Shown here one piece after another: positions 7,999 through 41,836 of a DNA stretch of 64,000 nucleotides. The DNA is from a virus, in IMG/VR virus record IMGVR_UViG_3300045988_091566. One strand, given 5' to 3'. Position 1 is the stretch's first letter, and every line of letters begins with the position of its first letter. The notes beneath the pieces are model-generated. The model was given only the letters and a program-made list of their open reading frames with translations, did not search any database and was not told where the DNA came from. A program made the position numbers and the translations under genes.

Positions 7999-8469
7999 AT
8001 GAAAGGTACAAACAATGAAATCAGTCTCAGCCTTTTAGGCTTGGAGAAAATGTACAAGGCTGACTTAGGTGAAGCCTTAGTAGAAAACACTGAGTTTGCT
8101 GTCAGCTTCCCTGACAGTGTAGAGCTCACGACACGTCAGATGTCCCGTGAACTCACTGCTGATGAGCAGCTCTTGCAACGCACTCATCAGTTAGGAATAG
8201 AGTTGACACCTGACGGGCGTGTTCCAAATGGTGAAGCTCCAATCTTAGTGGGGGTAGGTTTCACTAAGGATGATGACGGCAACGTAGTCTTCGGCGGCGG
8301 TAACCACGTAATGATTGCCGGCAACTTTGCAACAGTTTTCGCCGGTAAGACTTGCAAAGAGTGCGCGGAGGCTTATGATAAAGCCGTTAAGGACAACAAG
8401 AAAGTAGTAATGAAAGCTACTAAGTCCGCTAGAGGTAAGATTTGGTCGGAGTTTAGTATCAAGAAGTAA
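7999..8469 (+). CDS. hypothetical protein (156 aa) with markedly elevated GC and codon bias
   Basis: ORF track. The sequence, for example GGCGGCGGTAACCACGTAATGATTGCCGGCAAC, is far more GC-rich than its flanks. A strong terminator follows it. Confidence 0.65.
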   Translation: MKGTNNEISLSLLGLEKMYKADLGEALVENTEFAVSFPDSVELTTRQMSRELTADEQLLQRTHQLGIELTPDGRVPNGEAPILVGVGFTKDDDGNVVFGGGNHVMIAGNFATVFAGKTCKECAEAYDKAVKDNKKVVMKATKSARGKIWSEFSIKK

Positions 8470-15716: not shown

Positions 15717-15796
15717 GCGGAGTTAGCTTAATGGCTAGAGCACCTTACTTCCACAATTCATGAGAGGTTATATTGGTTCGAATCCTTTACTCCGTA
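15717..15796 (+). tRNA. atypical tRNA-like gene (80 nt); anticodon arm not canonical, isotype undetermined
   Basis: Acceptor GCGGAGT/ACTCCGT and D arm GCTT-AATGGCTA-GAGC are clear, and it contains GGTTCGAATCC. Positions 26-52 form only a stem (ACCTT/GAGGT) around a 17-nt loop. The T stem is weak. Confidence 0.4.
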
Positions 15797-16227: not shown

Positions 16228-16311
16228 ACGGTAGTAGCTCAGTGGTTAGAGCATCTCTTTTTATAATAGGTCATTTCGAGAAGGTCATTGGTTCGAATCC
16301 TTTCTACCGTA
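16228..16311 (+). tRNA. atypical tRNA-like gene (84 nt); anticodon arm not canonical, isotype undetermined
   Basis: Acceptor ACGGTAG/CTACCGT and D arm GCTC-AGTGGTTA-GAGC are clear. The region ending ATTGGTTCGAATCCTTT is identical to the corresponding region of the 15717 gene. The middle 34 nt fold only as a TCTC/GAGA stem around a 20-nt loop. Confidence 0.4.
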
Positions 16312-16419
16312 CAAATTTAATTTGATATATTGTTAGTGTGTTTGGATAAATCCTGACTAATAAATTTATTAGTATAGGTAGGTGTTACCACTATTCTCCT
16401 TTATAGAAATGTGGGCTAT

Positions 16420-16489
16420 GGAGATATAGCTCAGAAGGTCAGAGCACGGTGAAAATCCCGAGGTTGTGGTTCAATTCCACGTATCTCCA
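16420..16489 (+). tRNA. atypical tRNA-like gene (70 nt); no canonical anticodon stem found
   Basis: Acceptor GGAGATA/TATCTCC, D arm GCTC-AGAAGGTCA-GAGC, T arm TGTGG-TTCAATT-CCACG. The 19 nt in between (ACGGTGAAAATCCCGAGGT) do not form a 5/7/5 arm. Confidence 0.35.
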
Positions 16490-28182: not shown

Positions 28183-28483
28183 TTTCTTTGACGATGGTAA
28201 ATGTTCGCCAAGTAGGTTATATAAAGCTTATGTAAAGAAAGTAATTCCTTTTAATAAGGCTGACATACATCTAAAGATACATTTAGTTAATAGTGCTCTT
28301 GATTATGATTGGATATGGAATGGAGATACTGATTATTTCATAGGTTGTTATATTCCTAAGTATGACAATCATCTTATTTGGTTTGCAAGAACTAAATATG
28401 GTACATGGTTTAGTATGGATATTCAATCTAATTGGCAAGGAGGATTATTAGATGTCAATAGAGATGTTCAATTTAGTTTTTAA
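28154..28483 (+). CDS. hypothetical protein (109 aa)
   Basis: ORF track. Confidence 0.45.
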   Translation: MIPKKKQIYNFFDDGKCSPSRLYKAYVKKVIPFNKADIHLKIHLVNSALDYDWIWNGDTDYFIGCYIPKYDNHLIWFARTKYGTWFSMDIQSNWQGGLLDVNRDVQFSF

Positions 28484-28584
28484 CATTAATTAAGTTTTAA
28501 ATTATGGGTAATGAAGATAGAATAGATCCAGATGATTGGTATGATATGGGTTTTCCATATAGCCGAAGAATCAGAAGATATTAA

Positions 28585-29097
28585 AGAGTTCTAAATTAGA
28601 ACTCTTTTAAGTATGGGGCATTCGTGGTTTTGATTGTATAGGAGATAAGAAGCACAGCAAAGACAGTTGGAAAGACAACAAAACAATAAATGCTAGAGTT
28701 ATCAATATGACTTCTGTTTCTTACGCTATTGCAGCCTAAGAAACCGAGCAGCACTTGCTTAGGAACAGAAAGGTGCACTATTTTCCATTTCTTTTAAGTT
28801 CTCTGTATACTTTAGGAACAGAGTGGTGGAAGTTGACAGTATATTAATCCTGTCAACCCTAACAGACAAGGACAGTCTTTAAAACCTATGCTGTAAGAAC
28901 GTTTTGATGCAAATATGCAAGACTGGAGTTTAATTTCGGACTCGGTATAGAGTGATTTATACAATAATTAATCGGATGAATTCAGGGAACGCTAAAAATA
29001 ATGCTTAGCTAGAACTAACATTATTCATGCCAATCCTGAGCTAAGCATATAGTACACTATATGAAAGTGCAGAGACTACTGGAGAGATTTAGTTCTC
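28585..29097. other. about 510-nt GC-elevated non-coding region immediately 3' of the minus-strand HNH gene; multiple hairpins; candidate structured RNA or intron-like element
   Basis: No credible ORF. Minus-strand hairpins GTTGACAG..CTGTCAAC, CCTAAG..CTTAGG and GCTTAGCT..AGCTAAGC. Confidence 0.3.
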
Positions 29098-29727
29098 TTA
29101 ATTACCAGCTTGAGCGTCCGACCCTTCATTAGAAGGTGATGATATAGTCCACTCCTCATCGAAAGATGAGGTATAGGAAGATATTAGTTTTAAAAACTTT
29201 TTAGTATCTAAATCAGACATTTCAGATTTCATAAAATTTATTGGAGTAGATATAAATTGTACATTTCCTTTGATATAGCCTTTAGAAGAATCTATCCTAT
29301 CAAGAGAGGCTCTGTAAATAAAAGGAATTTTTTTTAGATTTCCATAAGTAGGGAGAATAAGGTCTAGTCCTGTGTAAGGACATTTACCATTTTGTTTTTC
29401 CCATACTTCTTTTAAATATTCTAAATCTATATCAACTTCCTTAAATCTTTTTTTAGCATTTCTAAGGGAATATCTAAAAGGTGTATATTCATCTTCATGA
29501 TTATTACATATATTTAATAGGTGTTCTCTTTGTTTATCTGAAATTGGTCTGCCAGCTCTACTTTTATTATTAAATTTAGCTGCACATGATCTAGAACAAA
29601 AATTATGTCTTCCTAATCTAACATTTCTTTTGTACTCGGATTCAGGTTTCTGAAATTCCTTACCACAACAATCACAAGTGATTGTAACTAACTTTCTACC
29701 AATACAATACTTTTTTAATTCTGTCAT
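29098..29727 (-). CDS. HNH homing endonuclease (HNH_3-like; 209 aa)
   Basis: N-terminal Cys-rich region CDCCGKEF..CSRSCAAKF. C-terminal NGKCPYTGLDL...SLDRIDSSKGYIKGNVQFIS, matching the LDRIDNxKGY HNH_3-type signature. Confidence 0.75.
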   Translation of the reverse strand: MTELKKYCIGRKLVTITCDCCGKEFQKPESEYKRNVRLGRHNFCSRSCAAKFNNKSRAGRPISDKQREHLLNICNNHEDEYTPFRYSLRNAKKRFKEVDIDLEYLKEVWEKQNGKCPYTGLDLILPTYGNLKKIPFIYRASLDRIDSSKGYIKGNVQFISTPINFMKSEMSDLDTKKFLKLISSYTSSFDEEWTISSPSNEGSDAQAGN

Positions 29728-30009
29728 AGATTTAAATTTTAACTATACAATTATAGTTTAGTATTGTGGAATTGCAAAGTTAAGAAATGTTAATAGGCGA
29801 CTCTCCAATGCTCCACTAGTTCATAGAACTGTTTTTTATTATTTGTTTTTAATCCCTGGGCTATTATTATAGTTCAGGGATTTTTGTTTAATTTTAACTG
29901 TTAATTATGGAAGAATATATTAATAACTCTATTAAAATAATTGATGATATGTTACACAACATAGACATTCTTATAAATTTATTAAAGTAATTATTAAACA
30001 TTTATCAAA

Positions 30010-31161
30010 ATGGATAAACAAATTTGGTTGCAAGATGGCAACGTTTTTAGTCAGGGTAGTGCGACAACAGTATCTCATCCTGAAGGATTACCGAAAGGTG
30101 TTTATGAAGTAAAAGTCTCAATGACTGGATTTTACTTAAGTAAAATTGCAGAGTCTTTTACATTTGGTTACAAATTATATGATCTAAATCAAAAATTTAT
30201 AAATCATGTCTTAAAGACATACAAGAATACTACAGGAAATTTAGGTATTCTGCTTAATGGAATCAAAGGAACTAGTAAAACAGTTACTGCAAAGGAACTT
30301 TGTAATCATTTACAGCTTCCTGTGATCTTAGTGCAATCAATGGGTGATTCTAATGATAAATTAATAAACTATTTATCTACAACTATTAATTTTGATTGCA
30401 TCTTCTTCTTTGATGAATATGAAAAAGAATTTAAAGATTCTTCTGATGTTCTCTCTTTTATGGATGGTACTTATAATTCTATTTATCGTAAGGTATTTTT
30501 ACTTACTACTAATGAGTTAAAGGTAGATCCAAATCTTCTTGGTAGACCTTCTAGAATAAGATATAAAAAGTCTTTCGGTAATCTTTCCGAGGAAGTTACT
30601 AGAGAGATTCTTAACGATATCTTAGAAGATAAAACTGCTATAGAGAAGGTTATAGAGTTAACTCATTCTATGAATATTATTACTATAGACTTAATTAAGG
30701 CTATAGCAACTGAAATTAATATTCATGGGGTGGAAGCTCTTTCTGATATTAAAGAAACCTTTAATATTGAGTTCTCTAAGTTTACTTATTTGTATAGAGA
30801 AGTGCGAATCAGTCATTGTGACTTGAAATTTACTTCTGAAAATATAAATAATCTATTGAAAATTTATAATAAATATAAAGAACTTAAAAAGAAAGCCTGG
30901 GAAAATCGTTCTCTCGAAGAAAAAGAATTCTATAACGAATGGTCTTCTAAGTTCGATGAGGATTATGGTTCTACTATGGAAGATAAAGAATTGAAATACC
31001 TAGAGCCTGGAGACTATTTTGAAGATGATCGTATATTAATGGTAAATGTTGCAGAAAAGTATGTAATAACTATGACTGATTATGGATATATTAAAATATA
31101 TTTAATTAATAGTTGCTATTCTGCAAGTAAAGCTACAGGTCTTGTAAATTACAAATTATAA
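30010..31161 (+). CDS. AAA+/P-loop ATPase (383 aa)
   Basis: Walker A-like LLNGIKGTSKT. Walker B CIFFFDEYEK (hhhhDE). Confidence 0.5.
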   Translation: MDKQIWLQDGNVFSQGSATTVSHPEGLPKGVYEVKVSMTGFYLSKIAESFTFGYKLYDLNQKFINHVLKTYKNTTGNLGILLNGIKGTSKTVTAKELCNHLQLPVILVQSMGDSNDKLINYLSTTINFDCIFFFDEYEKEFKDSSDVLSFMDGTYNSIYRKVFLLTTNELKVDPNLLGRPSRIRYKKSFGNLSEEVTREILNDILEDKTAIEKVIELTHSMNIITIDLIKAIATEINIHGVEALSDIKETFNIEFSKFTYLYREVRISHCDLKFTSENINNLLKIYNKYKELKKKAWENRSLEEKEFYNEWSSKFDEDYGSTMEDKELKYLEPGDYFEDDRILMVNVAEKYVITMTDYGYIKIYLINSCYSASKATGLVNYKL

Positions 31162-31243
31162 AAAAAAAATAAATGCCCCCTTGGAATTAACATCAGTTAG
31201 TTCTTAGATATTTAATTTTTATTATTTAAACATTTACAAATTT

Positions 31244-32797
31244 ATGGAACATTTAGTTCTTATTGGTGTTATCGCAGTCGTTATTATTGTACTGCTTGTT
31301 ATTATTGCTACAATGTATGTTAAAGCTCCTCCTTCGATGGCGTACATTCTTTCAGGTTTTCGTAAAGAACCACGAGTACTTATCGGTGGTGGTGGAGTAA
31401 AAATTCCTGTACTTGAACGATTAGATAAAGTATATCTTGGTCAAGTAACAGTTGATGTTAAGACTTCACAACCAGTTCCTACTCATGATTTCTTAGATGT
31501 AATGGTAGATGCCGTATGTAAAGTTAGGGTAAAACCTGATACAGAAGGTACTAGACTTGCAGCTAAGAACTTCTTAAATATGAATTCTGCTCAGATTGCT
31601 GCTCAGGTGAAAGATTCTTTGGAGGGTAATATGCGTGAAGTAGTAGGTTCTCTCGACTTAATTAAAATTAACACTGATAGAGATGCATTTTCTGATGAAA
31701 TTCAGAAGAAGGCAGCTCCTGATATGGCTAAGTTAGGTCTTGAGATTTTGTCTTGCAATATTCAGAATATTACTGATGAAAAGGGCTTGATCCGTGATTT
31801 GGGTGCTGATAATACAGCAGCTATTCAGAAGAATGCTAAGATTACCCGTGCTAATGCTGATAGAGATGTAGCTAAGGCTCAGGCTGAGGCTGACAATGCA
31901 GCTAACGAAGCACGAGTAAAGGCTGATACTATTATTGCTGAACGTAATAATGAATTAGCTATTAAGAAAGCTGAACTGAAGAGATTGTCTGATATTAAGA
32001 AGGCTGAATCTGATGCTGCATATAAAATTCAGCAGCAGGAGCAGCAGAAAACTATTAACATCAAAACTGTAGATGCTGATATTGAGAAAACTCGTAAAGA
32101 ACAGACCTTGTCTGAGGAGAAGATTAAAATTAAGCAGAATGAGTATCTTGCAGATGTAAATGCTAAGGCTGATGCTGATAAGTATCAGACAGAAATTGAT
32201 GCTCAGGCTGCTCTGGAGAAACAGAAACGTGAGGCTGAAGCTGAAGCTTATAAGGCAGAGCAAACTGCTAAAGCTGTAAAGGCTAAGGCTGAAGCTAATC
32301 GTTATTCTCAGGAGCAGGAAGCAGCAGGTATTCGTGCTAAGGGTGAAGCTGAAGCATATGCTACTCAGCAGACCTTGACTGCGGAAGCTGAAGGTACTAA
32401 AGCTAAACTTTTGGCAGAAGCTGAAGGTGTAAAGGCTAAGGGTCTTGCAGAAGCTGAAGCTATGCAGAAGAAGGCTGAAGCATACAGTAAGTATGGTTCT
32501 ATTGCTGTAATTGACATGCTTTCTAAACTTAATGAGAAAGTTCTTCCTGATATGGCTAAGTATATTGCTGAACCTATGAGTAAGATTGGCAATATGACAG
32601 TTTATGGAACTAATGGTTCTGAAGCTTCTGGTATTTCTGGTAATGTGCCTGCTATTATCAAACAAACTCGTGACATTGTAAAAGATGCTACAGGTGTAGA
32701 TATGGCAGACATTATGAAGGCTAACACTATTGATGCTAAGGTTAACAAGAATGTTAATGTTAATGGCGACGTAGAAAACACCAACGTAAATGTGTAA
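31244..32797 (+). CDS. SPFH/band-7 flotillin-like membrane protein (517 aa) with an N-terminal TM helix and a long EA-rich coiled coil
   Basis: N-terminal TM helix IGVIAVVIIVLLVIIATMYV. SPFH-type core (PSMAYILSGF...KIPVLERL...VDVKT). Long AEAEAxKAKAEA repeats typical of FloT/YqiK flotillins. GC is elevated relative to its flanks. Confidence 0.75.
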   Translation: MEHLVLIGVIAVVIIVLLVIIATMYVKAPPSMAYILSGFRKEPRVLIGGGGVKIPVLERLDKVYLGQVTVDVKTSQPVPTHDFLDVMVDAVCKVRVKPDTEGTRLAAKNFLNMNSAQIAAQVKDSLEGNMREVVGSLDLIKINTDRDAFSDEIQKKAAPDMAKLGLEILSCNIQNITDEKGLIRDLGADNTAAIQKNAKITRANADRDVAKAQAEADNAANEARVKADTIIAERNNELAIKKAELKRLSDIKKAESDAAYKIQQQEQQKTINIKTVDADIEKTRKEQTLSEEKIKIKQNEYLADVNAKADADKYQTEIDAQAALEKQKREAEAEAYKAEQTAKAVKAKAEANRYSQEQEAAGIRAKGEAEAYATQQTLTAEAEGTKAKLLAEAEGVKAKGLAEAEAMQKKAEAYSKYGSIAVIDMLSKLNEKVLPDMAKYIAEPMSKIGNMTVYGTNGSEASGISGNVPAIIKQTRDIVKDATGVDMADIMKANTIDAKVNKNVNVNGDVENTNVNV

Positions 32798-32859
32798 ACA
32801 TTAAATATCACAGAGGGAGGGAATAATCTCTCCCTCTTTTTCTAATTTTTAAAAATTTT

Positions 32860-34893
32860 ATGGAATACTTAGATTTTAGAAATCTTGTTACAGAAGCATG
32901 TAATAAGATGATTAAAGAGAACAAGCATCTCTTTATTCTTGACACTCAAAAAGAATTTTTATGGATGGCTTATATGGAATCTTTCCCTGAAGGAGCCGTA
33001 CGTCAAGAATTTAACTGTGTAAATTGTAAACATTTCATTACTCGCTATGGAGCATTAGTTTCTGTAGATGAGAATTATAAAATACATTCTTACTGGGAGG
33101 ATGTTCACGCTGAAGGAATGTTTGCTAAAGTTGTAGACAATATGTTACAAGTGCTTAAAAATACTAAAATTAGGAATGCATTTGTTACGGAAGAGACTAC
33201 GATGGGTTGTAAATGTAATCAGCAGATATTACCTTCTAAAGAAATAATTACTTGGAATCATTTTTATGCTACTCCTACAAGTAATTTAATTATGGATAAG
33301 TCTCAGACTCCAACATTCCGTGCAGGTGCTAAATCTTCACATGATGTATGGATAAGAACTTTATCTGAAATTAACTATAATTCTGTACAAACAGTATTAG
33401 ACTTAATTGCAGATGATAACCTCTATAGAGGTGACACTTATCTACGTCAAGTGAATGCTTTAAAGACTGCTCTTGATACAATAGAGAATAAGCACTTGGA
33501 AGGTTTTGAGTTAGATAATTATGCTTGGATATCTTCTTGTGTACTTCCTGATGCTGTAACACATATATTTAATAGTGCTATAGGTCAGCTTCTTAAAGAC
33601 ATAACTGATACTAACAATGTTGAAAGTTCAGTTAGGAAGTTTGAAGCTATGGTTGCTCCTTATAATTATAAGAGACCTAAAGGTATTATCACTAAAACTC
33701 AGGTAGAAAATGCTTATAAAACTGTAGTAGAACTTGGTTATGAAGATTCTTTAGAGCGTCGTCATGCTAAAGTAGAAGATATATCTATTGAAGATGTTAT
33801 CTTTGTAAATAGAGAAACTCGTAAGAGAATGTTAGGAGGATTTGATTCTCTTATGAATGAAACTTCTAATACTAGCAAAACTGCTACAGACTTTGAGAAG
33901 ACTGCGATTCCAACAACTATGGAAGAGTTCCTTAATAATATTGTTTCTAAGGCTAGTAAGCTTGAATTATTCTTTGACAATAAGTTAAATAATAATTTAG
34001 TAACTCTTACTGCCCCAGTTAATAAAGAAGCTCCTTCTATGTTTAAATGGAGTAATGGTTTTGCTTGGGCATATAATGGTAATATCTCTGACGCTATTAA
34101 ACAACGTGTTAAAGAAGTAGGAGGTAAGGTAGATGGCTATATGAGAATCTCTCTTCATTGGTACAACTACGATGATTTGGATTTACATATGAATAGTCCT
34201 TATGGACACATTCATTATAGTAATAAAGCAGACCTTCTTGATGTAGATATGAATGCCTGTGGAGGTAGTGCTTTTGAAGAACGTAATAATCCTAAGAAAT
34301 TCTCTCGCAATGCTGTAGAAAATATCATTTTTTCAGAAATTCCTAAAGCAGGTACTTATAAAGTATTTGTTAACAACTATGCTAAAGTTGAAAATATTGA
34401 TTTAGGATTTGAAGTAGAAGTAGAACTTAATGGAGTTGTTCATACTTATGTGTATGATAAAAACGTCCCTCATAAGAGCGATGTTCCAGTATTAGACTTT
34501 ACTTCTAATGGACGTGAAGTTATCTTTACTAAAGAACATTTAAGTAGTACTACAGCATCTAAAGAAATTTGGGGAGTAAAGACTCAGAACTTCATTGAAG
34601 TATCTGCTATATGCTTATCTCCAAATTACTGGGGAAATAATAAGGTAGGTGCTAAGCACTATTTCTTTATGCTGAAGGATTGTAAGAATCCAGATGCTGT
34701 TCGTGGATATTTTAATGAGTATCTTAAAGACGAACTCACTAAAAATCATAAGAGAGTATTTGAAGTATTAGCATCTAAAGCTTTGACTCCTTATGATGAT
34801 AATCAGATGAGTGGTTTAGGATTTATAGCTACTTCTCGTAATTCACTTATGGTTAGAGTAGATTCAGGTAAAATTTATAAAGTAAATATTTAA
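32860..34893 (+). CDS. large hypothetical protein (677 aa)
   Basis: ORF track. No motif recognised by eye. Confidence 0.55.
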   Translation: MEYLDFRNLVTEACNKMIKENKHLFILDTQKEFLWMAYMESFPEGAVRQEFNCVNCKHFITRYGALVSVDENYKIHSYWEDVHAEGMFAKVVDNMLQVLKNTKIRNAFVTEETTMGCKCNQQILPSKEIITWNHFYATPTSNLIMDKSQTPTFRAGAKSSHDVWIRTLSEINYNSVQTVLDLIADDNLYRGDTYLRQVNALKTALDTIENKHLEGFELDNYAWISSCVLPDAVTHIFNSAIGQLLKDITDTNNVESSVRKFEAMVAPYNYKRPKGIITKTQVENAYKTVVELGYEDSLERRHAKVEDISIEDVIFVNRETRKRMLGGFDSLMNETSNTSKTATDFEKTAIPTTMEEFLNNIVSKASKLELFFDNKLNNNLVTLTAPVNKEAPSMFKWSNGFAWAYNGNISDAIKQRVKEVGGKVDGYMRISLHWYNYDDLDLHMNSPYGHIHYSNKADLLDVDMNACGGSAFEERNNPKKFSRNAVENIIFSEIPKAGTYKVFVNNYAKVENIDLGFEVEVELNGVVHTYVYDKNVPHKSDVPVLDFTSNGREVIFTKEHLSSTTASKEIWGVKTQNFIEVSAICLSPNYWGNNKVGAKHYFFMLKDCKNPDAVRGYFNEYLKDELTKNHKRVFEVLASKALTPYDDNQMSGLGFIATSRNSLMVRVDSGKIYKVNI

Positions 34894-34905
34894 TAATTAA
34901 CAACA

Positions 34906-35274
34906 ATGTACAAAGAAGCATTACAAAAGAAATTACGTTTTAAGACAAACAAGGGTATGATTACTACAGAAGATTTGTTCGACTTATCTCTGCAGAATCT
35001 TAACACTTTAGCTATTATGCTGGATAAGAAAATTAGTGAGGCTCCTAAGAAGTCTTTCATTGAAGAGCTCCCAGCTGAAGAAAATGATGATGAACTTCGT
35101 TTCAGCATTGTAAAAGATGTAATCAATATTAAATTAAAGGCTCGTAAAGACAATATTGATAAAGCACAGATTGATGCTCGTAACAAACGTATTGCTGAGC
35201 TTATCGCAAAGAAAGAGGACGAAGCTCTTGAGAATAAATCTATTGAAGAGCTTCGTGCTATGATTCAGAATTAA
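34906..35274 (+). CDS. hypothetical coiled-coil protein (122 aa)
   Basis: ORF track. Confidence 0.45.
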   Translation: MYKEALQKKLRFKTNKGMITTEDLFDLSLQNLNTLAIMLDKKISEAPKKSFIEELPAEENDDELRFSIVKDVINIKLKARKDNIDKAQIDARNKRIAELIAKKEDEALENKSIEELRAMIQN

Positions 35275-35402
35275 AATTTTTAAGATTTTATTTTTAGAAA
35301 AAAAATTCACAACTATAATAACCTCAGTAATAAGGAATACTTATTGAACGTTGTGAAACGTGAATTATAGTCGTGATAATTAAAAGGAAACTCAATCTTT
35401 TG

Positions 35403-35436
35403 AGGGGACTCTATTTAGAGTTCCCTCTTTTGGTTT
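35403..35436 (+). terminator. intrinsic terminator
   Basis: GGGGACTCT-ATTT-AGAGTTCCCTC hairpin followed by TTTTGGTTT. Confidence 0.5.
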
Positions 35437-35439
35437 ATT

Positions 35440-35661
35440 ATGACTAGCAAATTTAAATTGTATGAAAGTATTGTTTTAGACAATATCAAATTTACAGTTA
35501 TTAATATTAGTGTAATTCCACAATGTGCTCAATATATAGATAATAAATTTGTCTATTTATTTGATTTTAATTATTCTTTAAGTTATGGGGATTACAAGAT
35601 AGAACTCACAGAGACAGAAATAAATAATTTAATTAAAAATAATAAAGTAAACAAAAATTAA
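35440..35661 (+). CDS. hypothetical protein (73 aa)
   Basis: ORF track. Confidence 0.35.
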   Translation: MTSKFKLYESIVLDNIKFTVINISVIPQCAQYIDNKFVYLFDFNYSLSYGDYKIELTETEINNLIKNNKVNKN

Positions 35662-35832
35662 CTTTTATAATTTTTATAGTTAAATTATATTTATATCACA
35701 AACGGGTTAGGACTGTTATAGTTACGAATTTCACGATTAACCTGATTCCCAGATGTATATATCTATAAATATACTGACTTTTTTGAAGATTTCAACATGA
35801 AATTGGAAGGGTCGTACTTACCTTAGTACACA

Positions 35833-35867
35833 GAACCGAGAATTGGGAAGTTCTCGGTTCATTTTTA
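35833..35867 (+). terminator. intrinsic terminator
   Basis: 10-bp stem GAACCGAGAA/TTCTCGGTTC followed by ATTTTT. Confidence 0.55.
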
Positions 35868-35941
35868 AATTTTATTAAAATTATATTTTGAATAATAAAA
35901 TTTAGATTTATAATAGTCAATACGATAAAAAAGAATAAAAA

Positions 35942-36097
35942 ATGAAGAAATTACTTGTATTTAGTGTGTTATTTACACTCTTGAGTTGTTCTACTGGTTC
36001 AAATAATTCAGTAAATTCAACTTCAAATGATTCTATTAATGTTGATACTACAGTAGTTGATACTACTGCTATTGATTCAACTGTATGTCCTGATTAA
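35942..36097 (+). CDS. small lipoprotein (51 aa) with a lipobox
   Basis: Hand translation MKKLLVFSVLFTLLSCSTGSNNS... contains a signal peptide and an LLSC lipobox. Missed by the ORF track because it is under 60 aa. Confidence 0.45.
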   Translation: MKKLLVFSVLFTLLSCSTGSNNSVNSTSNDSINVDTTVVDTTAIDSTVCPD

Positions 36098-36108
36098 TCA
36101 GGACTTTC

Positions 36109-36181
36109 GCCTAGGTAGTTCAGTGGTTAGAACGCGAAACTGTTAATTTCGATGTCGGGAGTTCGATTCTCTCCCTTGGCG
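36109..36181 (+). tRNA. tRNA-Asn (anticodon GTT)
   Basis: D arm GTTC-AGTGGTTA-GAAC, anticodon arm CGAAA-CTGTTAA-TTTCG, T arm GGGAG-TTCGATT-CTCTC. One U-U mismatch in the acceptor stem. Confidence 0.6.
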
Positions 36182-36252
36182 CAATAATATATGCCTCTTA
36201 TTTCTAAGGTTAGCTGCCTTCTCGAAAAGAAATGTGTACACAAGAAGCGCCT

Positions 36253-36329
36253 AGAGTATTAAGCCCTGTTGGTAAGGGAACTAGACTATCACTCTAGTAA
36301 AACTAAGGGTTCGAGTCCCTTATATTCCG
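36253..36329 (+). tRNA. tRNA-Asp-like with A34: anticodon loop CTATCAC (anticodon ATC) where Asp tRNAs normally carry CTGTCAC
   Basis: T arm AAGGG-TTCGAGT-CCCTT, anticodon arm CTAGA-CTATCAC-TCTAG, D stem CCC/GGG, acceptor AGAGTAT/ATATTCC (one mismatch). Confidence 0.4.
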
Positions 36330-36353
36330 CAACTAATTAAAAAAATAAATAAT

Positions 36354-36830
36354 ATGAAAGAAACTTTTAATTATCAATCTGACGCAAACTTTTATGATAA
36401 AAAGGATTTTATTATAGCTGTTTTAAAAAGCAAAATAAATAGTTTTAAAGAGTATGATGCTGAAAGAAAAAAGCATTATGCGGGACTAGAACAAAAAATC
36501 GGAGAATTAGAATCCTATATAGATGAATTAGAAAATGGGCTTAATATAGATTCTTTAAATAATAAGATTCAATCTTTAGAAAATAAGATTGAAAAACAAA
36601 AACTTAAAATTAAAGAATTACAAGCTAAAGTTAATATATCTTTATTTGATGATACTAAGTCTTTTAAAGAGTTAGAATCTATAGCAAATAATTTAAAGAA
36701 CTTTAATAGCATGAAATTAGCTAATAAAGCCCTCAAAAAACATCTTAAAGATAATAAAAAAACTATATCTGATTTAGTATATGAATTAACACAAGCTAAA
36801 CTTAAAATAAAACAATTAACTGGAGAGTAA
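36354..36830 (+). CDS. hypothetical coiled-coil protein (158 aa)
   Basis: ORF track. Confidence 0.45.
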   Translation: MKETFNYQSDANFYDKKDFIIAVLKSKINSFKEYDAERKKHYAGLEQKIGELESYIDELENGLNIDSLNNKIQSLENKIEKQKLKIKELQAKVNISLFDDTKSFKELESIANNLKNFNSMKLANKALKKHLKDNKKTISDLVYELTQAKLKIKQLTGE

Positions 36831-41026: not shown

Positions 41027-41836
41027 ATGCAACAATTAAATTTAGTACATCTAGAAGATAGTGATATTAAATATTCTATCTCTAGATTCCCTGATGGAGA
41101 AGTTCAAATTTCATTAGAAGAATTCAGCCATAAGGAGCAAGTATTAGTAAAATGTAGAATTACTAATGCTGAAGACTTATTTATACTTATGCAAGTTTTA
41201 GATATCCTTGATAGACATGAAGTTCTATATAAAATAAATATCTATTACTTAATGAGTATGAGAATGGATCGAGTAATGGTTTTCAATAGACCATTTACTT
41301 TAAAAATAGTCTTAAATGTATTAAAAAATTGTAATGCAGAGACTATTGAAATTTTAGAACCTCATTCTGATGTTTATTATGATCCTAGATTCGGAGTTAA
41401 ATTCATGCCTCTTTACGCTGAAAAGAATCCATCTAATAATACTTGGAAAGAATTTCAATTAGTTTTCCCAGATGCTGGAGCTGAGAAGAGAAATGAATTC
41501 AGATATAATCGTAAAGCAATTACTTGTAGTAAAGTTCGAGATTTAACTACTGGAAGAATCTTAGAGATTAAAATAGACAATCCTGAAATAATTAGTGATA
41601 AACCATTATTAATTCTTGATGATTTATGTGATGGTGGAGGCACTTTTTGTGGTATTGCTAAAGCATTTAATATTTTAGGTGTTCCTAAGGAACGTTTGAA
41701 TATCGCAGTTACTCATATGGTAAATCCTAAGGGTATAAAGAATCTATCAGAAAACTTTAATCACGTATGGTTTACTAATTCTTATAAAGACTGGGACAAT
41801 CTTCCTGAGAATGTTACAATGTTTAAGGTTATCTAA
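41027..41836 (+). CDS. ribose-phosphate pyrophosphokinase (PRPP synthetase)-like phosphoribosyltransferase (269 aa)
   Basis: N-terminal RFPDGEVQISLEE resembles the Prs FSDGE motif. LLILDDLCDGGGT matches the type-I PRTase PRPP-binding loop (hhhhDDhhxTGGT). Confidence 0.55.
   Translation: MQQLNLVHLEDSDIKYSISRFPDGEVQISLEEFSHKEQVLVKCRITNAEDLFILMQVLDILDRHEVLYKINIYYLMSMRMDRVMVFNRPFTLKIVLNVLKNCNAETIEILEPHSDVYYDPRFGVKFMPLYAEKNPSNNTWKEFQLVFPDAGAEKRNEFRYNRKAITCSKVRDLTTGRILEIKIDNPEIISDKPLLILDDLCDGGGTFCGIAKAFNILGVPKERLNIAVTHMVNPKGIKNLSENFNHVWFTNSYKDWDNLPENVTMFKVI

Follow-up and report, generated by a model that had tools for sequence, protein, structure and literature searches.

A host-derived flotillin gene, apparently captured long ago, within an unrelated gene cluster of a large gut phage

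Flotillins of Bacteroidales, Bacillus subtilis (FloT) and humans (flotillin-1/2; 9l3g/9bq2) share one full architecture, in which a membrane anchor is followed by an SPFH domain, a coiled coil and a Flot domain (PF15975), the last of which sets them apart from stomatin, prohibitin and HflK/C. The physiological role of the bacterial members is still debated. Partnerships between SPFH proteins and AAA proteases are established for HflK/C-FtsH. Both host-derived auxiliary genes and SPFH proteins are already known from phages; distant "flotillin family proteins" have been annotated in csAssE-Sib (OR575929.1) and Vibrio phage KIT04 (LC487410.1). Here we analyzed a 64,000-nucleotide (nt) stretch of viral DNA (IMG/VR record IMGVR_UViG_3300045988_091566; the window), in which a preliminary description made from the letters alone had pointed to a GC-elevated, recently captured membrane module at positions 30,010 to 34,893, comprising an AAA+ ATPase, a flotillin and a 677-amino-acid (aa) protein. 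We conclude that the flotillin is genuine and host derived, and that the proposed module is better replaced by an old, stand-alone flotillin gene lying in an unrelated phage cluster.

Four open reading frames (ORFs) on the + strand, coding for proteins of 383, 517, 677 and 122 aa, lie where the preliminary description had placed them. The second of them is the flotillin, whose features are as follows.

31244..32797, + strand: flotillin gene, 517 aa (Pfam Band_7 and Flot, flotillin-1 match, composition, substitution rates, tree)
31253-31315, + strand: hydrophobic membrane anchor, aa 4-24 (sequence inspection)
31325-31861, + strand: SPFH/Band_7 domain, aa 28-206 (Pfam PF01145)
about aa 195-420 of the flotillin, + strand: proline-free Ala/Lys/Glu coiled coil (composition and flotillin-1 alignment)
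32381-32644, + strand: Flot domain, aa 380-467 (Pfam PF15975)
32384..32459, + strand: 33-nt (11-aa, AEAEGxKAKLL-type) tandem repeat inside the coiled coil (TRF; period 33, 2.3 copies)

The 517-aa protein matched both Band_7 (E=2.7e-22, 80 bits, cut-off 23.6) and Flot (E=1.6e-10, 41.6 bits, cut-off 27), and it aligned with human flotillin-1 (9l3g; E=1.1e-43) over two stretches, residues 25-336 and 369-505, the second of which corresponds to flotillin-1 residues 298-434. On inspection, residues 4-24 (LVLIGVIAVVIIVLLVIIATM) are uncharged, and V, I and L make up 63% of residues 1-27. Residues 195-420 (226 aa) align with the flotillin-1 coiled coil and contain 23% Ala, 15% Lys, 13% Glu and 8% Gln without a single Pro. 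These matches strongly indicate a genuine flotillin with the full cellular architecture rather than a generic coiled-coil protein, in agreement with the anchor, SPFH core and long coiled coil that had been read from the sequence. The score against the NCBIfam FloT equivalog NF058507 was 258.5 bits, below the 700-bit cut-off, and the phage protein is thus a homolog, not an ortholog, of Bacillus FloT. Its best PHROG match, to the SPFH-type phrog_200, was partial (residues 5-243, E=3e-10). The SPFH domain is common to all the other phage SPFH proteins considered (phrog_200 "lipoprotein", csAssE-Sib, KIT04), which are only distantly related to the window flotillin; identity to the annotated flotillin family proteins is 26-30% over the SPFH part. 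A flotillin was detected by tblastn in 11 of 50,697 phage records, several of them short unverified contigs, in keeping with the earlier remark that such a gene is uncommon in phages.

The coiled coil varies among close relatives. Alignment showed that the copy number of the AEAEGxKAKLL-type repeat differs between near-identical flotillins, and flotillins 97-99% identical over the rest of their length differ by in-frame coiled-coil deletions of ~70-115 aa at various positions, mainly between aa ~215 and 400, with total lengths of 408-528 aa. These differences may be real alleles or short-read assembly artefacts.

The best cellular homologs of the flotillin were proteins of Paludibacteraceae and other Bacteroidales metagenome-assembled genomes (MAGs) from herbivore guts (62-68% identity), with Prevotellaceae (56-59%) and Lachnospiraceae (~50%) more distant. 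We compared the gene phylogenetically with those of Bacteroidota, as had been suggested for it. In neighbor-joining trees the window-type phage flotillins formed one clade, recovered in 100 of 100 bootstraps and adjoining the Paludibacteraceae-type sequences, indicating a single capture, most probably by the ancestor of the clade from a Paludibacteraceae-like Bacteroidales host. No conserved neighbor of the donor-type flotillin, NfeD-like or other, was found in 80 bacterial loci, which indicates that it is a stand-alone gene in bacteria as well.

Two contigs assigned to bacteria were unusual. L085 (JAJBUG010000051.1, 194,454 bp), assigned to a "Bacteroidales MAG," consists of one node with 91x coverage and has its flotillin at the extreme end; this contig may be a phage genome that was binned wrongly as bacterial. 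The joint-best cellular match (68%), a Bacteroidales-type flotillin, lies on L017 (JAGAYY010000025.1), a contig of a "Bacilli" MAG, which may also have been binned wrongly.

Other phages appear to have acquired flotillins separately. Three contigs of 130-198 kb (L113, L114 and L115), considered viral by their collection and their neighboring genes, encode flotillins 52-55% identical to that of the window. These grouped with the window clade in 0 of 100 bootstraps and did not group together either. Their contexts also differ, with an NMNAT-like cytidylyltransferase, an isochorismatase and a metallophosphatase in L113, a Mom-family protein and a helicase in L114, and an ATP-dependent DNA ligase in L115. 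Together with a further phage, L011, which carries a distinct SPFH gene (see below), they suggest that at least three to five phage lineages took up flotillins independently, and such repeated capture points to selection for flotillin in phages.

We then considered the age of the capture in the window clade. The flotillin gene is clearly GC elevated (0.388, compared with a per-gene mean of 0.291 and a standard deviation [SD] of 0.047), ranking about third or fourth among 102 ORFs. The elevation proposed for the region as a whole stands for this gene only: the ATPase gene is average (0.288), the DUF8224 gene, which codes for the 677-aa protein, is at 0.322 and the gene for the 122-aa protein at 0.339, and other parts of the window are as GC rich as the flotillin region or richer. 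By codon position (GC1, GC2, GC3), the flotillin has values of 0.562, the highest in the window, 0.347 and 0.255. A bacterial homolog, L007, has 0.558, 0.337 and 0.679, and the unrelated flotillin of phage L011 (30% GC) has 0.568, 0.371 and 0.227; mean GC3 in the window is 0.191 (SD 0.074). GC is highest in the coiled-coil part of the gene, reaching 0.417 with a GC1 of 0.597, and Ala and Glu codons are dominant there. The excess is therefore attributable to amino-acid composition, since GC1 and GC2 are those of the bacterial homolog and the coiled coil is rich in Ala and Glu, and the silent sites are fully equilibrated to phage composition.

The ratio of nonsynonymous to synonymous substitution rates (dN/dS) of the flotillin was 0.063 (dS 0.99), 0.063 (dS 1.5) and 0.108 (dS 1.6) in three phage comparisons, compared with 0.34-0.36 for the ATPase, 0.12-0.30 for the DUF8224 protein and 0.12-0.13 for the 122-aa protein. 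The flotillin was the best conserved of the four gene products in every relative surveyed; in L108, for instance, identities to the window are 67% for the ATPase, 94% for the flotillin, 78% for the DUF8224 protein and 89% for the 122-aa protein. The phage-like GC3 and the dS of ~1.0-1.6 between phage copies argue strongly for an old capture, and the ratios for strong purifying selection, stricter than on the neighbors. Thus, the host origin put forward in the preliminary description, from Bacteroidota, holds, and its recency does not. The phage copy differs from cellular flotillins by its place in a large phage of virulent type, its phage codon composition, the lack of an NfeD-type partner and a coiled-coil length that is variable among close relatives.

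The compositional survey also singled out another ORF, at 7999-8469, as the true outlier of the window, with a GC of 0.463 and a GC3 of 0.49 (means of 0.29 and 0.19). It had no Pfam match and no Rfam family, and it is a better candidate than the flotillin for recent foreign DNA.

The relationship of the flotillin gene to its neighbors was analyzed from the following elements.

30010..31161, + strand: single-domain classical-clade AAA ATPase, 383 aa (PF00004, E=7e-10; phrog_2376 "ATPase," E=2e-47)
32812..32837, + strand: intrinsic-terminator-like hairpin with an 11-bp stem, 6 G-C pairs and a T-run, located after the stop of the flotillin gene and before the start of DUF8224 (consensus scan)
32860..34893, + strand: DUF8224 (PF26675)/phrog_1735 protein, 677 aa (phrog_1735, E=2.9e-200)
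34906..35274, + strand: phrog_2018 small protein, 122 aa (phrog_2018, E=3e-32)
35402..35427, + strand: terminator-like hairpin closing the DUF8224/122-aa unit (consensus scan)

The order ATPase, flotillin, DUF8224 and 122-aa protein is kept in the window, in its closest public record, MT835492.1 (an unannotated 121.6-kb human-faecal phage scaffold with 95% nucleotide identity), and in 16 IMG/VR relatives. Synteny in more distant phages, the natural deletions and the hairpin downstream of the flotillin argue that the four genes are separable, contrary to the single membrane module that had been proposed. A syntenic 193-kb relative, L015, retains only remnants of the neighbors (ATPase aa 1-71, DUF8224 aa 1-38 and aa 27-122 of the 122-aa protein), and its two separate deletions flank an intact flotillin 92% identical to that of the window. 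This arrangement recurred in 8 places, from separate samples, which makes it a circulating lineage and not an assembly error. In L014, a flotillin ortholog with 77% identity lies in a different phage context, with OmpA-family, methyltransferase and GrpE genes after it; at the nucleotide level, L014 and the window are homologous over the flotillin coding sequence only. In L011, the ATPase (52% identity to the window), DUF8224 (59%) and 122-aa (75%) proteins are all present, with 1 nt between the ATPase and DUF8224 genes. About 730 bp upstream of this L011 cluster, ahead of the ATPase, is a gene for a 603-aa SPFH protein; the protein is 26% identical to the window flotillin, and its gene is a different one in a different position. 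No flotillin lies beside DUF8224 in phages Det7 and phiCbK or in L009 and L010, nor beside the adjacent DUF8224/phrog_2018 pair of metagenomic relatives with a ~43% identical DUF8224 protein.

These comparisons provide strong evidence that the flotillin is independent of the ATPase, DUF8224 and 122-aa proteins, as it stays intact where those are deleted and has an ortholog in an unrelated context. The simplest history is that of a composite region, in which a flotillin cassette with its hairpin was inserted between the ATPase and DUF8224 genes of a pre-existing ATPase/DUF8224/phrog_2018 cluster. The joint loss of the three neighbors in L015 and their tight packing in L011 weakly suggest that these three may work together as a separate functional unit.

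Scanning of positions 28400-36400 for terminator consensus sequences yielded 13 sites, compared with 2.9 +/- 2.0 in shuffled sequences. None of these was detected between the ATPase and flotillin genes. The 82-nt gap between them (31162-31243) showed no convincing promoter. The promoter scan, which is for sigma-70-type sites and does not cover Bacteroidetes-type promoters, gave no enrichment, with 40 sites compared with 38.6 expected by chance. The single-gene cassette, cellular origin, directly downstream hairpin, variable presence and position, and purifying selection are shared with host-derived auxiliary genes or morons; the flotillin differs from typical ones in being a structural membrane scaffold rather than a metabolic enzyme and in that its own promoter was not identified.

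The window has a G+C content of 29.3% and reads as a non-structural part of a large phage, going by its gene content. It holds many short + strand ORFs and 11 tRNAs (ARAGORN), and it also encodes a DnaB-like helicase, a primase, exonucleases, a PRPP-synthetase-like gene and HNH endonucleases. Its metagenomic relatives are on contigs of ~170-193 kb. Neither the flotillin neighbors nor the large window ORFs examined included lysis or structural genes.

The upstream gene had been taken for an AAA+ ATPase, which the PF00004 and phrog_2376 matches confirm. The Walker A motif of the window protein, GIKGTSKT (aa 84-91), has Ser for the usual Gly, a minority variant: GTGKT is present in 107 of 120 ATPase relatives and GTSKT in 9. 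Other motifs conserved in the alignment are a Walker B FFFDE, TTN and GRPSRIR. In profile searches of the PDB, the ATPase matched NVL, p97, Cdc48 and NSF (E ~1e-7 to 1e-6). PF00004 was its only Pfam match, with no Peptidase_M41 protease domain, and no transmembrane (TM) or hydrophobic segment was found. A weak match to the PADLOC family IetA (E=1.9e-5) covered the P-loop region, residues 77-146. Det7 gp36 was considered as the same ATPase and ruled out, as it belongs to phrog_2396, and the ATPase-DUF8224 linkage appears confined to the phage group of the window.

In many relatives the ATPase gene is broken exactly at the Walker A lysine (window site ~30277-30280, codon 90) by an intron-like element, which was located as follows.

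L005, 6612-6941: intron-like element in the ATPase gene
L100, 2636-2965: intron-like element in the ATPase gene
L103, 4707-5035: intron-like element in the ATPase gene
L097, 3727-5035: intron-like element in the ATPase gene
L012, 3381-4537: intron-like element in the ATPase gene

The short form (329-337 nt) is strongly structured, with a minimum free energy of -84.4 compared with -57.0 +/- 4.4 (z=-6.3). The long form (1.15-1.3 kb) adds an ORF with two LAGLIDADG motifs, which a stop interrupts in both L097 and L012. The exon that follows the element is intact. Rfam gave no match to the insertion, which we regard as intron-like on the basis of its structure and its LAGLIDADG ORF. The GTSKT of uninterrupted alleles (window, L004), in place of GTGKT, may be a homing-site change.

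DUF8224 was found in 521 phage records, including Ackermannviridae, phiCbK-like, Bacillus BCP78-like, Cellulophaga and Microcystis phages. A phrog_2018 protein is encoded next to it in Det7 (gp39/gp40), phiCbK (gp273/gp274) and metagenomic relatives. The N-terminal part of DUF8224 consists of an alpha/beta and a helical region with invariant Q49, N52, C53, C56 and H134. Its C-terminal half appears to contain a TerD/C2-like beta-sandwich with invariant LHW..YDDLDLH and LDVDMN motifs, resembling TerD, C2 and PLAT domains, many of which bind Ca2+ or membranes. Homology to TerD was considered and rejected, as hhalign against TerD, TerE, TerZ and TerA of a Klebsiella plasmid gave a probability of 0.06% (E=0.77); the likeness would be at the level of the fold only. 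Pfam TerD was found in 0 of 37 DUF8224 members, a Foldseek search of the DUF8224 model against the PDB returned nothing at E<=0.001, and nothing relevant was found in the literature searched for PF26675/DUF8224. With its phrog_2018 partner, DUF8224 constitutes a widespread conserved gene pair in large virulent phages of very different hosts, which merits its own study.

Genes related to NAD lie 6-8 kb downstream of DUF8224. The window encodes a PRPP-synthetase-like protein (41027-41836; phrog_619, E=3e-60) with a weaker NAMPT-family match, and relatives add NAMPT/NAPRTase and NAD synthase near DUF8224 (L004 17118-17299, L009 13267-16016). They resemble phage NAD-salvage or reconstitution genes.

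Upstream of the cluster is a phage transfer-messenger RNA (tmRNA) gene.

28583..29868, + strand: phage tmRNA gene, with exons at ~28583-28930 and 29798-29868
28931-29797: group I intron of 867 nt in the tmRNA T-loop (RF00028 at 28915-29171, 85.9 bits with a gathering score of 50, E=5e-22)
29098-29727, minus strand: HNH/EndoVII-like ORF inside the group I intron (HNH PHROG matches)
29851-29882: terminator-like hairpin marking the tmRNA 3' end (consensus scan)

The intron splits the T-loop of the 3' tRNA-like domain, which is why ARAGORN misses the tmRNA of the window. The gene is intact in relatives, for example at L005 5815-6148 (334 nt; RF00023, 49 bits), where ARAGORN gives the tag peptide ARVINMTPVSYAIAA, and the insert is absent from MT835492.1. 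In the first tRNA cluster, an 85-nt tRNA at 16228-16312 (Rfam tRNA-like, 53 bits) has the anticodon TTA, with which it would decode UAA; ochre suppression is unexpected in a genome that presumably uses UAA as its main stop codon. The tRNA at 18368-18440 is unassignable, and Rfam adds two tRNAs (15717-15796 and 16420-16489) that are not in the ARAGORN output.

What might the flotillin do for the phage? The complete architecture and the stand-alone nature of the donor-type gene suggest that the protein most likely acts as flotillins do. By analogy with the family, it would become anchored in the cytoplasmic membrane of the host and form oligomeric SPFH scaffolds or cages, either by itself or together with the ~65%-identical host flotillin, and these could organize or stabilize membrane patches. 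Expressed from a non-structural region beside replication and nucleotide-metabolism genes, it might thereby sustain or reshape membrane organization and integrity during infection. It would thus be an auxiliary gene that sustains host functions and not a virion or lysis component. We lean modestly towards this explanation as a whole, namely, a captured, autonomous flotillin in an older cluster that acts as a membrane scaffold. Its evolutionary part is nearly certain, and its mechanistic part comes closer to being evenly balanced.

Several points weigh against it. The membrane mechanism is taken wholly from knowledge of the family, and terminators and promoters were called by consensus matching only. 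With no promoter identified between them, the ATPase and flotillin may be co-transcribed. The unrelated SPFH gene near the ATPase-DUF8224 cluster of L011 could reflect a functional link instead of coincidence. Lastly, the coiled-coil deletions of ~70-115 aa, if real, would fit poorly with a cage of constant geometry. The literature searched contained no functional study of a phage flotillin and no reported function for other phage SPFH proteins either; one article retrieved (PMC12379486) deals with flotillin-associated rhodopsins, not phages.

The L011 gene is also the best support for the proposal that all four proteins form one membrane-remodeling module, in which, for instance, the SPFH scaffold recruits an AAA unfoldase and a Ca2+- or membrane-binding adaptor in the manner of HflK/C-FtsH. 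The four-gene order shared by the window, MT835492.1 and the 16 IMG/VR relatives, the lack of a detected terminator between the ATPase and flotillin, the potential of TerD/C2/PLAT-like folds, such as the one apparent in DUF8224, to bind Ca2+ or membranes, and the known SPFH-AAA protease partnerships are in its favor. The likeness to HflK/C-FtsH amounts to an SPFH gene adjoining an AAA ATPase gene, whereas the window ATPase is a soluble, single-domain classical AAA protein devoid of TM segment and M41 domain, and the pairing breaks down in relatives. Considering also the flotillin-only lineage in 8 samples, the orthologous flotillin in the unrelated context of L014, the 521 phage records with DUF8224 as against 11 with flotillin, the terminator-like hairpin between flotillin and DUF8224 and the different selective regimes of the four genes, we find such a module improbable. 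The view of the gene as an assembly artefact, with bacterial DNA joined wrongly to a phage contig, or as a passenger in decay has nothing more than the cellular ancestry of the flotillin to recommend it and is almost certainly wrong, given the same junctions in dozens of independent contigs of 95-193 kb, a phage-like GC3 and a dN/dS of 0.06-0.11.

The assembly, lysis-timing and superinfection-exclusion roles suggested in the preliminary description were speculation. Control of lysis timing or of virion assembly at the membrane, for example by organizing holin rafts, would draw on the general role of flotillins in organizing membrane proteins, as known from the family. It is very unlikely, as neither lysis nor structural genes were found nearby and the flotillins of other phages lie among replication, metabolism and DNA-modification genes. 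A counter-defense or exclusion device, with a scaffold that guards the membrane from abortive-infection pore-formers or sequesters membrane proteins against superinfecting phages, agrees with the independent captures and the strong purifying selection, which suggest a strong benefit during infection, and with the location of the gene in an accessory-gene-rich early/middle region. SPFH proteins of Bacillus and their partners (a PspA link, DynA) are involved in membrane-stress responses, and DynA has been tied to phage protection (PMC8581546, PMC8844932). Nevertheless, no PADLOC defense family matched the flotillin, DUF8224 or 122-aa proteins, no known anti-defense gene is adjacent, and such a role is unreported in the literature searched; the evidence being wholly circumstantial, we consider it unlikely.

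The explanation that we favor, an old and autonomous flotillin acting as a membrane scaffold, has consequences for the phage and for the family. That the gene is kept under stronger selection than its neighbors, and even without them, indicates that the flotillin by itself is of advantage to the infecting phage, and the independent captures strengthen this inference; if a host can be cultured, these phages would offer a tractable test system. The locus also illustrates a common misreading, as elevated GC in one part of an AT-rich phage can arise without recent transfer. We give little credence to a broader idea, that large gut phages have converged on the capture of flotillins, in which the scaffold shields or reorganizes the infected membrane, for example against abortive-infection effectors or premature lysis, and the copy number of the coiled-coil repeat tunes its geometry. 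If true, it would define a new class of phage membrane-protection or counter-defense factor and provide a genetic handle on the function of bacterial flotillins.

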